46,553 nucleotides of DNA, taken from Escherichia phage vB_EcoS_IME542. Below, piece by piece: positions 17,666 through 33,782 of the stretch. The stretch is from sequence record MK372342. One strand, 5' to 3'. Numbering within the stretch: position 1 is the first letter of the stretch; each line of letters starts with the position of its first letter. Below the pieces are notes generated by a model. The model did not search any database and was not told the DNA's origin. It worked only from the letters and a program-made list of their open reading frames with translations. The position numbers were made by a program, and so were the translations under genes.

Positions 17666-17740
17666 GCTCTGTTAGCTTAATGGAGAAAGCCGCAGCCTTC
17701 TAAGCTGTTGATGGTGGTTCAACTCCACCACGGAGCGCCA
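17666..17740 (+). tRNA. tRNA-Arg (anticodon UCU), CCA encoded
   Basis: Hand-folded cloverleaf: acceptor GCTCTGT/ACGGAGC, D-arm GCTT-AATGGAGA-AAGC, anticodon stem GCAGC/GCTGT with loop CTTCTAA, T-arm GGTGG-TTCAACT-CCACC, discriminator G, CCA. Confidence 0.7.
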
Positions 17741-28181: not shown

Positions 28182-28838
28182 ATGGCCCATCTTAGTAACG
28201 GCACTCAGGTCTTCGTAGAAGGCACCAGGGGAGCTACTATCGACGTAACCGCGATTTCCAACGCCGTTACTCCTGTTTTAACTTTATCCAGCGTTGAAGA
28301 TATTGCTCGCGGTGATTACCTTCTGTTTACCAGCTCAGCTTCAACCCTGCTGGCTGACAAGCAAGTTCGCGTTACCGCAGTATCTGGTTCAACTGTAACC
28401 GTTGAAGGTATTGATACCTCCAACACCACCAAGTTCCCGGCCGGTTTAACTGGCGAAGTGGTTAAGATTCTTAGCTGGTTTGAGGTTCCTTGTGTTCAGG
28501 ACGTATCCACTGACGGTGGTGAACAGCAGTTCGTTAACTTCCAGTGTTTGTCCGATGACCGTGAACAGCAGATTCCAACCTATAAGTCTGCTGTAACTAA
28601 CACCTACACGTTCGCGCACGAATACACCAACCCTGTATATCCGGTTCTGCGTAACTACGATGAGTCTGGCCAGGTTGTTGCGATTCGTCTGTTCGTACCT
28701 CGAGCTAGCGAAATGCGCTTGCAGTCCGGCACTATCGCTTTCAACGACACCCCTACCATTGGTGTTAACGAAATCGAAACGGTATCCATCGCAGTATCAA
28801 TTCGTGGTCGCCTGTCCTCTGTGGCAGCTGAAGTTTAA
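28182..28838 (+). CDS. major tail protein (putative)
   Basis: 218 aa; AAGGAAAA RBS; followed by strong terminator; precedes chaperone and tape measure genes. Confidence 0.6.
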   Translation: MAHLSNGTQVFVEGTRGATIDVTAISNAVTPVLTLSSVEDIARGDYLLFTSSASTLLADKQVRVTAVSGSTVTVEGIDTSNTTKFPAGLTGEVVKILSWFEVPCVQDVSTDGGEQQFVNFQCLSDDREQQIPTYKSAVTNTYTFAHEYTNPVYPVLRNYDESGQVVAIRLFVPRASEMRLQSGTIAFNDTPTIGVNEIETVSIAVSIRGRLSSVAAEV

Positions 28839-28844
28839 AACACA

Positions 28845-28868
28845 AACCCTCTTCGGAGGGTTTTTTAT
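28845..28868 (+). terminator. rho-independent terminator
   Basis: AACCCTC-ttcg-GAGGGTT followed by TTTTTT. Confidence 0.75.
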
Positions 28869-28872
28869 TGCA

Positions 28873-28933
28873 TAGCACTTTTTGCTAAAGCACTTATTCA
28901 GCTTTACTGTATAGTTATCTCATCGAAACGAAA
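28873..28933 (+). promoter_or_regulatory. boxed promoter element (perfect box TAGCActttttGCTA, hairpin AAAGC/GCTTT, TATAGT, CATCGAAACGAAA)
   Basis: Read directly. Confidence 0.55.
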
Positions 28934-28948
28934 TGAGAGATTAAAGAA

Positions 28949-29197
28949 ATGAATAACGTTAAAAACATCATCAAACTTGCTGCAGTTCTTGTTGCTTTTT
29001 ATGCAGTAGTTCAGATTGTTAACCCAACTGGTGAGGCTGATGCCAATAGCAAGGCAAACAAATATACCGTTGAGTTCGCTAAAGCTGAGCGAGCATGTCA
29101 GGAGCTTGTGGGTAGTAAAGTTGACCAAATCATGAAATATGGCAAAGAGGTCTGCAAGGACTCAGCTGCTAAGATTGCAAAAGAAAACACTAAGTAA
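28949..29197 (+). CDS. small secreted or membrane-anchored protein (possible moron)
   Basis: N-terminal hydrophobic IIKLAAVLVAFYAVVQIV; own boxed promoter; inserted between major tail and chaperone genes. Confidence 0.45.
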   Translation: MNNVKNIIKLAAVLVAFYAVVQIVNPTGEADANSKANKYTVEFAKAERACQELVGSKVDQIMKYGKEVCKDSAAKIAKENTK

Positions 29198-29236
29198 TAG
29201 AATACATACTCACAAACAATAAGAGGATTAACTAAG

Positions 29237-29551
29237 ATGGCTAAGTTCAAACTTTCACTGGCAGCACTCCCTGACTTCAAGCTTCCGGTAAAATTCAAGC
29301 TGGCTAACGACCAGGATGTAGAGGTTATCTTTACAGTCAAGCATAAGAAAACATCTGAGCTTCAGGAGCTTTTGCAGAAAGAAGACTTGAGTACTAAAGA
29401 ATTGATTATGGCAATCGCCTCTGATTGGGATTTGGAAGAAGAATACAACGAGGATAACGTTAATGAGTTCTCCGACCTGTTCCCAGCGTCAACGGTTGCA
29501 CTGACTACCGCTTACATGCAGGCACTGGCAGGCCAGCGGGTAAAAAACTAA
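29237..29551 (+). CDS. tail assembly chaperone (lambda gpG-like)
   Basis: 104 aa acidic protein immediately upstream of tape measure gene; ends at slippery heptamer. Confidence 0.6.
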   Translation: MAKFKLSLAALPDFKLPVKFKLANDQDVEVIFTVKHKKTSELQELLQKEDLSTKELIMAIASDWDLEEEYNEDNVNEFSDLFPASTVALTTAYMQALAGQRVKN

Positions 29552-29871
29552 AGAGGGCGGTGTATCTACAGTACCAGTCAGATCCAACTGATGCCGAACT
29601 GGAAGCTATTGGGATGCGCCGCTCTGATTACGAAGATGAAGAGCCTGAAGTTTTACACTTCGACGACAACATGATGAAGGCTTGGGACATTTATTGTTCA
29701 ATGGCCACGCAATGGAGGGTTGGAGCTAACGGAGCTACAGGGTTAGATTACAACGTGCTAAATTTCCTCTTTAGAGTGTATAATGTCTCAGAAGAAGAAT
29801 TGGTGCTCAGTGATTTACGCATCCTTGAAGCTAAGGCTCTCGAGATGATGGATAATCTGAGAAAAAAATAA
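29542..29871 (+). CDS. gpT-like extension reached by programmed -1 frameshift at A_AAA_AAC (29542..29548), giving a G-T fusion
   Basis: Downstream ORF is in the -1 frame and open from the heptamer; zero-frame stop TAA immediately follows the heptamer. Confidence 0.6.
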   Translation, partial: KKLKRAVYLQYQSDPTDAELEAIGMRRSDYEDEEPEVLHFDDNMMKAWDIYCSMATQWRVGANGATGLDYNVLNFLFRVYNVSEEELVLSDLRILEAKALEMMDNLRKK

Positions 29872-29906
29872 CCCGCTTCGGCGGGTTTTCTATTATGGAG
29901 GCTTAG

Positions 29907-32888
29907 ATGGCAACAAATGAATTAGCCGGAATCACACTAGCCGTAGACGTCTCGCAGGTAGACAGAGGTACACAGTCCCTGCGGAAGTTCAGGCAGGCAA
30001 ACCAGCAGGCCGCTTCCGGCATTAGTGAGTTCGTCAACGCCGAGCAGGTTGCAAAGAATCAAGCCAGAGACACAGCTCGCGCACTGGCTGAACGGCAATC
30101 ATCTTTGGCTAAATTGCAAACGGCTATTGACCCAACTGCGGCAAAGTTCCGTAAACTCCAGGAGGCTGCTGTAGGTCTTGATAAGGCTTTCGCGGCTGGA
30201 GTAGTTCCTGATGAGGAGTTTTTCCGCTTAGGTGAGGCGCTTGAAACGCAGAACGCAAAACTTGCTCGTTCACGTGCGGCACTAACTGAAGAGGGTAGAG
30301 CGGCGGCGCAAGCTGCAAAGGATAAGGCAAAGGCAAAGGCTGAAGCGGATAGATTCATTGCATCACTTGAGCGTCAGGCTCAGGCGGCAACATTGACGCG
30401 AGAGGAGTACCTAAAGTTACAAGCGGCCCAGCTTGGCGTAAGTTCTCAGGCGGCGCCTATTATTGACAGAATCGCCGATGCATCACGGAAGGCAAACACC
30501 CAGCTAATTGCTCAGAGCAAGGCCTTTCAACGCTCTGGCTTAAGCGCAGGTCAATACAAGGCTGCAATCTCTCAATTGCCAGCGCAGATTACAGATATTG
30601 GGACATCACTTGCTGGCGGCATTCCGATTTGGCTTATTGCAATTCAGCAAGGTGGACAAATTAAGGATGCATTTGGAGGTATTGGTAACACATTTAGTTT
30701 TGCGCTTGCTGCTTTAAACCCGTTCAACGTAGCAGTTGGGGTTCTCGGTGGCGCGCTTGTTGCTTTAGGCGTCGGTGCTGCGCAGGCTGAAAGTGAATTC
30801 AGGGCGTTAAACTCCGCCATTGCGTTCTCAAACAACTCCACAATCGCATCAATCTCGCAGGTTAGAGAGTTGGTTAGCTCTGTTTCTGATGCCACTGGTG
30901 CAACCAGAGGACTTGTGACTAGCATCGCAACAAGCCTTGTTGAGCAAGGAAACCTTACGCTAACGCAGATTGACAAGATTACTAAATCAACAGCCAGATG
31001 GGCTCAGTTGACAGGTAAGGATGCAAAGGAAATTACTGGTTACTATAACCAGATTGCGAGCGACCCAATTCAAGGACTTGCTGATTTAGACAAGAGGTTT
31101 AACTTCCTTACACAGGGGCAGTTAACAACAATTGAAAGATTGAGAGAGACTAGGGGTGAGGTTGAAGCCGTAACTGCTGCTATTGATATATTTAGCAAAT
31201 CACAAGAGGCAAACCTTAACGATATTGCAGCCCAGCTTACTCCTCTTGAATTGGCCTGGAATGACTTCAGGAAGTACATATCTGATGTATGGGATGCAAT
31301 TAGTCGCAGAACGGTTGGGGCGCTAAACCTGTTTGTTGACGTAATCGCCGGAACAATTGAGCAAATTAGGGTCTTCATCAACCAGGGTGATGTGCTGATT
31401 GGTGAATTCGTAATTAGCGCAACACAGGCACTGCAGAACATCCCCGGCCTTGATGGTGTTGGTGATGATGTTGTCAAGGGACAGCAGAAGATTATCGATG
31501 CCGCTAAGAAGCAAAACATTGAGCTAGAGAAGTCTATCAAGGAGCGCGATGCCAGAATCAGAGAAGGAGAACTTGGCTACGTTACTCGCAGAGAAAATCA
31601 GAATACCAATGAGCAGTCAGGCACGGATGAGGAGTTTGCAAAAAGGAAGAAAGCGCTTCAGGATGAACTTGATGCGATCAAGAAGAGCAGGAAAGAAGAA
31701 AATGGTAGGGTTAAAGAGCAAAGAGACCTTACAATTGGTTACGAATCTGGCGTACTTGCACTACAGGCACAACTCAAGGTGCTTCAGGAAAACAGGGATA
31801 TTGGCGCAGTAATAAGCAATGAGCGCAAGCAGTATCTTCAGGAGGTTGCAAAATTCCAGATTCTTGAGCAAAGGCAGCGTGATGGCTCAATAAAAAAAGA
31901 GCAAGCAAGACTTATTCTCGAGAAAGATAAAGTTCTGGAACTAGCAAGGCAGAAAGCTGAACTTGGCGATCAGATTGTTTTGCAGGAAAGAGCTAATAAG
32001 TTAGCTGAGGATAACAGGAAGAAGATTCTTCAGATCAACAACGAAGCAAATAACATTGGTTTTGGCGCCGGATTATCATCTCGTGAGCAGCAGAGAGCCA
32101 GAGAGATTCAGTCGCTTCAGTCCAATCAGTTAAACAAAGGTGGCTCTGTAGATGACACTGATTTTCAGGCTTTACTCGAAGCAAGGCGTAATTTCTATGC
32201 TCAAGAGGATGCGCTACGTGAAAACTGGCTTGCTGGCGTGAATCAATCCTTTGCTAACTGGGCTGAAAGCGCTACAGATGCTTTCTCAATTGCCGGAAGT
32301 TTAACCACTAAGGTATTTGAAGGCATTACTGACCAGATTACTGACCTTGTAACCACTGGAGAAACAAACTTCAGGGAGTTTACTGTAAACATACTCAAGC
32401 AGATTGCAAGAATTGCAACTCAGCTTCTTATTGTTAAGGCTATCGAGTCTAGCTTAAGTAGCTTTGGTGGTACTGGTGGCGCGATTGGGTCTATCGCATC
32501 TGCGATTGGCGGTGGCTTTGCTAGCGGCGGTTACACTGGAGACGGTGGAAAATATCAACCAGCAGGCACTGTACATAAGGGGGAGTTTGTATTCACAAAA
32601 GAAGCAACAAGCAGGATTGGTGTTAAAAACCTTTACGCATTGATGAGAGGTTACGCAAATGGCGGTGTTGTAGGCGGGCCTTCGGGCTATGCAAATGGCG
32701 GCTTGGTTTCTGGTGGTGCAGATGTTAATGTTAGCGGAATAACCGTTAACGTTAATAGTGGGATTGGAAGCGACCCGGAACAGGCCAAGGCGCTGCAAAA
32801 TGGCGTTAAGGCAATTGTAGCAGAAGAGATTGCTCAGTCTTTCCAGCAGGGCGGCAGAGCATTTGCTTATTTGAGAGGTTTCAACTAA
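29907..32888 (+). CDS. tail tape measure protein
   Basis: 993 aa, long alpha-helical Ala/Gln/Glu-rich N-terminal half, Gly-rich C-terminus; position after G/GT. Confidence 0.85.
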   Translation: MATNELAGITLAVDVSQVDRGTQSLRKFRQANQQAASGISEFVNAEQVAKNQARDTARALAERQSSLAKLQTAIDPTAAKFRKLQEAAVGLDKAFAAGVVPDEEFFRLGEALETQNAKLARSRAALTEEGRAAAQAAKDKAKAKAEADRFIASLERQAQAATLTREEYLKLQAAQLGVSSQAAPIIDRIADASRKANTQLIAQSKAFQRSGLSAGQYKAAISQLPAQITDIGTSLAGGIPIWLIAIQQGGQIKDAFGGIGNTFSFALAALNPFNVAVGVLGGALVALGVGAAQAESEFRALNSAIAFSNNSTIASISQVRELVSSVSDATGATRGLVTSIATSLVEQGNLTLTQIDKITKSTARWAQLTGKDAKEITGYYNQIASDPIQGLADLDKRFNFLTQGQLTTIERLRETRGEVEAVTAAIDIFSKSQEANLNDIAAQLTPLELAWNDFRKYISDVWDAISRRTVGALNLFVDVIAGTIEQIRVFINQGDVLIGEFVISATQALQNIPGLDGVGDDVVKGQQKIIDAAKKQNIELEKSIKERDARIREGELGYVTRRENQNTNEQSGTDEEFAKRKKALQDELDAIKKSRKEENGRVKEQRDLTIGYESGVLALQAQLKVLQENRDIGAVISNERKQYLQEVAKFQILEQRQRDGSIKKEQARLILEKDKVLELARQKAELGDQIVLQERANKLAEDNRKKILQINNEANNIGFGAGLSSREQQRAREIQSLQSNQLNKGGSVDDTDFQALLEARRNFYAQEDALRENWLAGVNQSFANWAESATDAFSIAGSLTTKVFEGITDQITDLVTTGETNFREFTVNILKQIARIATQLLIVKAIESSLSSFGGTGGAIGSIASAIGGGFASGGYTGDGGKYQPAGTVHKGEFVFTKEATSRIGVKNLYALMRGYANGGVVGGPSGYANGGLVSGGADVNVSGITVNVNSGIGSDPEQAKALQNGVKAIVAEEIAQSFQQGGRAFAYLRGFN

Positions 32889-32959: not shown

Positions 32960-33430
32960 ATGAACTGGAATGATATTTTTGATTATAGAAATGGCGTTCT
33001 TTATTGGAAGATAAAGCCAGCAATACAATACAATATTGGCGATGTTGCTGGTTTCTTTTGTGAAAAGAGAGGTTACATAATCGTTCAATACAAGCGTGTA
33101 AAGGTAATGGCCCATAGGGTTGTATGGGAAATGTTTAATGGAAGAATAGCTGATGACATGGAAATTGATCACATTGACCACTCTAGAAAAAACAACAACA
33201 TATCAAACATAAGACTGGTAACGAAGAGTGATAACATGAAAAACAAAAGCATGTACTCATCAAATAAAACTGGCGTTGTCGTGGTTAGTTACTGCAAAAC
33301 AAAGAAAAAATTTATATCAAAGATAGGTAAGAGAATTCTATTAACAACAAGCAATTTTGAAGAGGCTGTAAAAGCGAGAAAAAGCGCAGAGATAGCCCTT
33401 AATTATCACAAAAATCACGGGGGTAAATAA
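32960..33430 (+). CDS. HNH homing endonuclease, paralog 3 of 5 (between tape measure and gpM-like gene)
   Basis: MNWNDIFDYRNGVLYWKIK..., EIDHIDHSRKNNNISNIRLVT, C-terminal NYHKNHGGK; AT-rich codon usage. Confidence 0.85.
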   Translation: MNWNDIFDYRNGVLYWKIKPAIQYNIGDVAGFFCEKRGYIIVQYKRVKVMAHRVVWEMFNGRIADDMEIDHIDHSRKNNNISNIRLVTKSDNMKNKSMYSSNKTGVVVVSYCKTKKKFISKIGKRILLTTSNFEEAVKARKSAEIALNYHKNHGGK

Positions 33431-33431
33431 T

Positions 33432-33782
33432 ATGGCTCTAGATACGTTTAATTTTTGCACTCAGATTCAAAATGGAGGCGCGACATTCTCTAACACCAAT
33501 AACGTGCGTATTGTTAGCTTTGGCAATGGTTATGAACAAAGAGGGACGGGAGGATACCGCAGCAATAAGCGCAGCTACCAGATGACTTACACAAACAAGA
33601 ACTGGCGTGAGGTTATGGATTTCTGTTTCAATCACATCATCACACCATTCTTCTGGAGAACACCGCAAGGCGATACTTCTATGTTTGTTATTCAGCAAGA
33701 TAGCATCAGTGTAACGCCATTAAGTAGCGAAGTTCAGACTGTAAGCATGCAATTCGTGGAAGTCTTTAGCTCAATGCGTTAA
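33432..33782 (+). CDS. minor tail protein, lambda gpM-like
   Basis: 116 aa; segments SFGNGYEQR and FFWRTP parallel lambda gpM. Confidence 0.55.
   Translation: MALDTFNFCTQIQNGGATFSNTNNVRIVSFGNGYEQRGTGGYRSNKRSYQMTYTNKNWREVMDFCFNHIITPFFWRTPQGDTSMFVIQQDSISVTPLSSEVQTVSMQFVEVFSSMR

Follow-up and report, generated by a model that had tools for sequence, protein, structure and literature searches.

The G/GT frameshift of the tail assembly chaperone genes is reportedly conserved among the long-tailed phages, as Xu, Hendrix and Duda are said to have found in 2004. The frameshift of phage lambda (Levin, Hendrix & Casjens 1993; Xu, Hendrix & Duda 2004, 2013 and 2014; summarised in PMC5009743) yields GT and G at a ratio of about 1:30 (PMC5009743), and this GT:G ratio is essential for lambda tail assembly. 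For T1-like phages, a G/T frameshift is mentioned in the paper on phage Stevie (PMC4319613), and a G-T fusion was hypothesised in that on Rogue1 (PMC3496638); no paper treating phage T1, a slippery sequence and a tail assembly chaperone together was found in a literature search. Tail assembly chaperones are also reported to trigger bacterial Avs immune sensors, which bind the N-terminal core common to the short and long isoforms (bioRxiv 10.64898/2026.01.04.697583). The G/GT frameshift that we describe here is very probably real but not new, an ordinary case of an arrangement already described in T1-like phages.

The G and T reading frames lie between the major tail and tape measure genes

The window, i.e., the whole stretch of 46,553 nucleotides analysed here (Escherichia phage vB_EcoS_IME542, MK372342), represents a T1-like E. 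coli siphophage of the Drexlerviridae, whose classified close relatives belong to the Braunvirinae, genus Guelphvirus. A 1.1-kb query covering the region 28900 to 30000 is 100% identical to Escherichia phage phiA2-1, 99.9% identical to vB_EcoS-IME253 and 80-97% identical to ~75 further coliphage records. The genes of the locus and its landmarks are organized as follows:

28182 to 28838, + strand: major tail (tube) protein gene, the upstream landmark (Pfam PF08813 Phage_tail_3, E = 2.2e-68)
28949 to 29197, + strand: 82-aa ORF with a hydrophobic N-terminus (PHROG 22925, unknown function, E = 1e-55)
29237 to 29551, + strand: gene G, putative tail assembly (tape measure) chaperone, 104 aa, 11.8 kDa (ORF list, Pfam, PHROG)
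29548 to 29871, + strand: T segment, -1 frame after the predicted shift, 107 codons plus stop (translation, Pfam, PHROG, wobble periodicity)
29907 to 32888, + strand: tape measure gene, 993 aa, the downstream landmark (TMP_2, E = 1.1e-48; Tape_meas_lam_C, E = 1.2e-19)
33432 to 33782: M homologue, a gpM-like minor tail gene (Pfam-confirmed)

G matches the Pfam family PF08748 (Phage_TAC_4) over the complete profile (positions 1-124 of 124; E = 3.2e-33, 115 bits, gathering cut-off 21.1), and T likewise matches PF08809 (DUF1799) from end to end (positions 1-80 of 80; E = 5e-16, 59.1 bits, gathering cut-off 26), giving the order major tail protein, 82-aa ORF, G (Phage_TAC_4), T (DUF1799) and tape measure (TMP_2). 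G also matches PHROG 569 and PHROG 17368. On the latter, a family of 213 positions, G aligns at 1-107 and T at 113-210, indicating that a fused GT is already a database family. A sequence-based search for solved structures of G or T found none, and the putative functional roles of the two proteins are transferred by synteny and family annotation only.

The 82-aa ORF, for which the Pfam search returned no match, is found in the close relatives examined, OzMSK, 2725-N35 and CEB_EC3a, and is missing at the same place in the T1, Tlsvirus, Vilniusvirus and Sauletekiovirus loci; it has the look of a small accessory gene acquired by insertion. On the other side of the locus, an ORF for a 156-aa HNH_3 endonuclease (32960 to 33430, + strand, E = 2.8e-19), likely a homing endonuclease, lies between the tape measure and gpM-like genes, and position and inspection are the sole basis for assigning the ORFs that follow the M homologue as lambda-like L, K, I and J. 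On the + strand, the G-T cassette is flanked by hairpins that resemble intrinsic terminators and have T tracts, one at 28844-28863 following the major tail gene and the other at 29870-29887, within the 35 nt that separate the T stop from the start of the tape measure gene, and a sigma-70-like promoter site is present at 29175-29203, just upstream of G. Terminators are annotated at equivalent positions in the T1 record, and a terminator after T is annotated in the CEB_EC3a record. The flanking terminators and the promoter-like site may set the expression ratios of the tail tube, chaperone and tape measure proteins.

An in-phase slippery heptamer abuts the stop codon of G

Standard decoding of 29237 to 29551 would yield G, whose translated C-terminus reads ...AGQRVKN. 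The zero-frame codons that close the gene are GTA (29540-29542), AAA (29543-29545), AAC (29546-29548) and TAA (29549-29551), and they contain the following elements:

29542 to 29548, + strand: slippery heptamer A_AAA_AAC in X_XXY_YYZ phase, with AAA (Lys) as the P-site and AAC (Asn) as the A-site codon (sequence and phase)
29549 to 29551, + strand: stop codon TAA of G, directly 3' of the heptamer and inside the -1-frame codons CTA AAG (Leu-Lys)

The -1 frame stays open between 29467 and 29871 and overlaps G by 85 nt, stop codon included. Its first start codon is the GTG at 29560, from which the downstream ORF runs to 29871 (103 codons), and the ORF list contains no start codon in this frame from 29467 to 29559. 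The initial annotation had proposed that A_AAA_AAC at 29542 to 29548 closes a gpG-like ORF with TAA next to it, and that the 103-codon downstream ORF, in the -1 frame, stays open through the heptamer; the sequence and its phase bear out both points to the base. The predicted GT fusion has 211 aa and a computed mass of 24.3 kDa, compared with 11.8 kDa for G.

With 14 copies of AAAAAAC in the window and 14.25 expected, the occurrence of the heptamer alone is within chance; what goes beyond chance is its phase, position and conservation. For comparison, we used the 135 in-phase heptamers of the loose X_XXY_YYZ form that lie in ORFs of at least 80 aa. Among these, the -1 frame extends for a median of 6 codons with a 95th percentile of ~63, compared with 107 codons at the G site, where zero sense codons are left in the zero frame after the heptamer. 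The few longer -1 extensions in the set are all located in ORFs that overlap another gene's frame.

The locus resembles lambda in arrangement and probable mechanism

The layout of G and T follows that of lambda in several respects. Two small ORFs lie between the major tail and tape measure genes; the second is read in the -1 frame, runs over the 3' end of the first and lacks a conserved initiation site; an in-phase slippery heptamer with a Lys codon context sits inside the overlap; and an abundant short form and a rare long form would be expected. The heptamer is also conserved among relatives, and from it onward selection on the encoded protein acts in the new frame. At the level of sequence, the G/T locus of the window displays every feature that defines the conserved tail-chaperone frameshift. 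The lambda-style G/GT frameshift upstream of the tape measure gene that the initial annotation had put forward is supported by gene order, protein families, frame geometry and comparative sequence, and a programmed -1 frameshift between G and T is, on this evidence, highly likely.

The two systems also differ. The heptamer is A_AAA_AAC in the window and G_GGA_AAG in lambda, and it forms the last two sense codons of G and abuts the stop, whereas the lambda site is located several codons before the G stop. Unlike in lambda, the proteins of the window belong to the families Phage_TAC_4 and DUF1799, an extra 82-aa ORF is inserted between the major tail gene and G, and T, which in lambda overlaps H, is set apart from the tape measure gene by a terminator-like hairpin. 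BLASTP gave no significant pairwise similarity to lambda G/T, with E = 1.3 for G against G and E = 0.029 for T against T over 12 residues only, and on these values we rejected the view that the two proteins are sequence homologues of lambda gpG and gpT. What the locus shares with lambda is its arrangement and probable mechanism, without detectable sequence homology.

The same A_AAA_AAC, within an A6C run, is used at the IS1 insA-insB' junction, where Lys-tRNA slippage takes place with low efficiency. Lys-tRNA slippage on an A-run is likewise known from E. coli dnaX (A_AAA_AAG; PMC5009743). Unlike dnaX, with its SD-like stimulator upstream and its strong hairpin downstream, the window has no conserved internal SD, and its predicted downstream structure is lineage-specific; the biological outputs of dnaX and IS1 are unrelated to that of the tail chaperones. 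Within the Drexlerviridae, T1 (ST40/ST39) and other members have the same protein families, the GYA AAA AAC TAA site and the KKLKRAVYL junction. Phage vB_ecoS_OzMSK (PQ659294), which is 97.3% identical over the region and has an identical slip site, carries a joined "tape measure chaperone" CDS of 635 nt encoding 211 aa, equal in length to the predicted GT.

The slip motif and the frame break recur among relatives

The comparative set comprises 83 distinct related loci from GenBank phages and IMG/VR, spanning Braunvirinae, Rogunavirinae, Tempevirinae, Tunavirinae (including T1), Vilniusvirus, Sauletekiovirus, Klebsiella T1-like phages (taken to be Webervirus) and Dhillonvirus, the G of the last being 28% identical to that of the window. 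The 3' ends of G in this set fall into four forms:

GYA AAA AAC TAA (TGA in 2): 49 of 83 loci, in most lineages, window included
GCA AAA GTT/GCC TAA: 27 of 83 loci, in the Klebsiella T1-like phages
GCA AAG GTC TAA: 5 of 83 loci, in Rogunavirinae
A5 variants: 2 of 83 loci, scattered

In phage T1, G ends with GCA AAA AAC TAA. In all loci without an A5 variant, A_AAR lies exactly two codons before the stop, and the stop itself (TAA, or TGA in the 2 loci) is at the same exact place. From A_AAR on, the -1 frame always reads K-(K/G/S)-L-(K/R)-R-A-V. In Dhillonvirus CS16, a TGA closes the -1 frame just before the heptamer (CG TGA AAA AAC TAA), which confines the shift to 10 nt.

An A5 run is present in four database genomes, each of them an isolate-genome entry, represented by our loci L002 (MN840485, phage 2725-N35, at ~2140-2150), L058/L138, L079/L130 and L134. 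It puts T in the +1 frame and stretches "G" to 117-122 aa, and the G and T frames are not fused. In the chaperone context, IMG/VR contains 62 contigs with A6 versus 3 with A5, all of the latter being imports of isolate genomes, and one A5 genome has a further frame break nearby. We rejected the A5 variants as genuine +1 frameshift sites on the basis of these counts and of their restriction to isolate imports; they are probably homopolymer sequencing errors, and genuine A5 genomes with +1 slippage are unlikely.

Sequence variation places the change of coding frame at the heptamer

Site-wise entropy was calculated over 63 unique related sequences anchored on the stop codon of G. Upstream of the heptamer, entropy is highest at the third zero-frame codon position (means of 0.81, 0.44 and 1.58 for the three positions), and downstream of the stop it is highest at position 3 of the -1 frame (0.51, 1.43 and 0.64 in zero-frame numbering), locating the changeover of the coding frame at the heptamer. 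The A at -7, which begins the slip motif, has zero entropy in the 63 sequences, though it occupies the wobble position of a Val or Ala codon and neighbouring third positions have an entropy of ~1.8. Between the stop and the GTG at 29560, the L-K-R-A codons (CTA AAG AGG GCG) undergo synonymous changes only, Arg being written as AGG, CGG, CGA or CGC and Ala as GCG, GCT, GCC or GCA, so that this segment must be translated in the -1 frame. Taken together, the entropy switch, the L-K-R-A codons and the closed frame of Dhillonvirus place a frame change at the heptamer with about as much certainty as can be had from sequence data.

Alternative explanations for the production of T

T could in principle be made without a fusion, from a start of its own:

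29553 to 29562, + strand: SD-like GAGG (29553-29556) followed by GTG (29560-29562), a possible start of T (sequence)

Independent initiation or termination-reinitiation would use this GTG, the first start codon of the -1-frame ORF, which lies 8 nt past the G stop and is preceded by GAGG; the annotators of OzMSK record an "independent RBS", and several GenBank records list the two ORFs separately. However, the spacing from GAGG to GTG is 3 nt only, and the GTG is replaced by GTT, GTA or GTC in Tlsvirus, T1, Vilniusvirus, Webervirus and Rogunavirinae, with the Val residue and the preceding L-K-R-A conserved through synonymous changes only. In the lineages without GTG, the next ATG is located far inside the conserved domain, and the annotated starts of T, 48-150 nt past the G stop, vary from record to record. 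Independent initiation of the downstream ORF had been named in the initial annotation as the outcome that would speak against a frameshift; the change of the start codon to non-start codons in most lineages, and the protein-level selection acting in the -1 frame on the four codons upstream of it, argue against such initiation. A separately initiated T that makes the fusion unnecessary has, in our estimate, only a slim probability, and independent initiation as the sole route is very unlikely; that some free T arises from the GTG in this lineage, making three products, is unlikely.

The frame could also change in the RNA, if RNA polymerase stuttered on the A6 and added one A to some transcripts, and one extra A in the mRNA does bring G and T into a common frame. 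E. coli RNA polymerase slips efficiently only on runs of ~9 or more, whereas the run at the G slip site is 6 only, and the alignments contain no such long run conserved as a run. Fusions of this type are known to arise by transcriptional slippage on A/T runs (PMC5009743), yet the same G/T geometry occurs with only AAAA in Webervirus and AAAGG in Rogunavirinae, and runs of this kind cannot sustain polymerase stuttering but still permit Lys-tRNA slippage; we consider an RNA-level change of frame extremely improbable. If, finally, there were no recoding at all, G and T would be neighbouring genes with a coincidental heptamer, or a single GT gene interrupted by a sequencing error. AAAAAAC is indeed at chance frequency in the window, and a few database genomes contain probable homopolymer errors at this very run. 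Nevertheless, the frame break, the motif and the stop recur in the 62 IMG/VR contigs with A6 and, across several subfamilies, in ~80 distinct loci, the slip motif begins with an invariant A in wobble position, a single in-frame GT gene is never seen among the related loci, and the A5 variants leave the frames unfused and derive from isolate-genome imports only. The recurrence of the frame break across relatives excludes a sequencing error, and the probability that recoding is altogether absent is next to negligible. Programmed -1 frameshifting at the heptamer is the reading that we retain.

Candidate stimulators of the frameshift

Downstream of the heptamer, a long-range structure is predicted in the window:

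29554 to 29625, + strand: predicted RNA stem of 14 bp, with 29554-29567 pairing with 29612-29625 (RNAfold)

The predicted stem begins 5 nt past the heptamer and encloses a smaller hairpin. Its folding energy in RNAfold is -32.5 kcal/mol (z = -2.39 against dinucleotide shuffles), and it outdoes 98.9% of T-frame synonymous recodings (z = -2.7). The stem is intact in 8 close relatives, and 5 of its 14 pairs are broken in Rogunavirinae. No covariation was found for it, and the RNAalifold consensus of Braunvirinae and Rogunavirinae amounts to only -3.5 kcal/mol; we rejected a structure shared by these two subfamilies, given the negligible consensus fold and the retention of the stem in the close lineage only. 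The 14-bp stem may be regarded as a candidate only, and a weak one, for a frameshift stimulator in this lineage.

In T1, Tlsvirus and many others, a compact hairpin, GGGCGGUUU...AAACCGCC, begins 6-7 nt past the heptamer and folds with -16 to -20 kcal/mol. Unlike T1 and Tlsvirus, the lineage of the window lacks this hairpin, the long-range stem being predicted in its place, and the downstream hairpin of Dhillonvirus is GGCGGCG...CGCCGCC. On the upstream side, the entropy of the 63 sequences reveals no conserved SD-like element, as the wobble positions there vary freely. An Rfam scan of 29400 to 29950 found no frameshift element and returned sub-threshold matches on the terminator hairpin only. 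The strictly conserved stop that abuts the heptamer may contribute to shifting; it is likewise imposed by the Leu-Lys (CTA AAR) conserved in the -1 frame.

Proposed mechanism

In the proposed mechanism, most ribosomes would translate 29237 to 29551 and stop at TAA, giving the 104-aa chaperone G, and a minority would slip one base back on A_AAA_AAC (29542 to 29548), bypassing TAA. Lys-tRNA would re-pair from AAA (29543-29545) to AAA (29542-29544), with or without a shift of Asn-tRNA from AAC to AAA, and the shifted ribosomes would read CTA AAG AGG GCG GTG... up to 29871 to produce the 211-aa GT fusion. We infer GT synthesis, the GT:G ratio and the slip mode (tandem or P-site only) from the sequence, and stimulation by the adjacent stop codon and the predicted downstream stem likewise. 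A_AAA_AAC is a recognised -1 heptamer that in E. coli is less shift-prone than A_AAA_AAG (PMC5009743), and such weak shifting would fit a low GT:G ratio. At the same time, the relative weakness of this heptamer as a shifter in E. coli is a point against the proposed frameshift.

The two slip modes predict different junctions. A tandem slip would give ...QRVKN-LKRAVY..., with the peptides RVKNLKRAVYLQ and ...AGQRVKNLKRAVY, and a P-site-only slip would give ...QRVKK-LKRAVY..., with the peptides RVKKLKRAVYLQ and ...AGQRVKKLKRAVY. The junction peptide offered in the initial annotation, RVKKLKRAVYLQ, therefore holds for a P-site-only slip but not for the classical tandem slip, for which RVKNLKRAVYLQ is expected. 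In the lineages with A_AAG_GUC and A_AAA_GUU, a P-site-only slip is the sole option.

If the proteins act as in lambda, the tape measure protein would be coated by G and by the G part of GT, and the T part would bring in the major tail protein for polymerisation of the tail tube up to the measured length; the virion would contain neither G nor GT. The phage also encodes a tRNA-Arg (17666 to 17740, + strand, anticodon TCT) that reads AGA/AGG, and the first Arg codon of the -1 frame past the shift site is AGG (29554-29556).

Annotation and implications for the family

The main value of the present analysis is correct annotation, i.e., that the relevant product is very probably a 211-aa GT fusion and not separate hypothetical or mislabelled proteins. 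The fusion is unannotated in phiA2-1, which is 100% identical in this region, in the T1 RefSeq entry and in most other records, where the ORFs are separate or shortened. RefSeq re-annotations (e.g., NC_047810, NC_047812 and NC_005833) call the G/T homologues "tail length tape measure protein", and this "tape measure" misnomer for chaperone genes, which has been propagated, is also found in the descriptions of PHROG 569, 680 and 17368. As lambda needs its GT:G ratio, the engineering of T1-like therapeutic phages should keep 29542 to 29551 and probably the downstream stem.

Current understanding is unchanged by the G/GT finding, and the additions are modest, namely a family-wide A_AAR motif, a turnover of second heptamer halves and downstream structures between lineages, and a candidate long-range stem. 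For the family as a whole, one possible though rather doubtful reading is that the minimal A_AAR P-site slip is the sole universal element, and that the second half of the heptamer (AAC, GUC or GUU) and the stimulator have been repeatedly exchanged. The stimulators would then form a series, with a local hairpin in T1 and Tlsvirus, the predicted 14-bp stem in this lineage and none in Rogunavirinae. If this exchange were true, the Drexlerviridae would lend themselves, as a natural series, to the study of G:GT ratio tuning.
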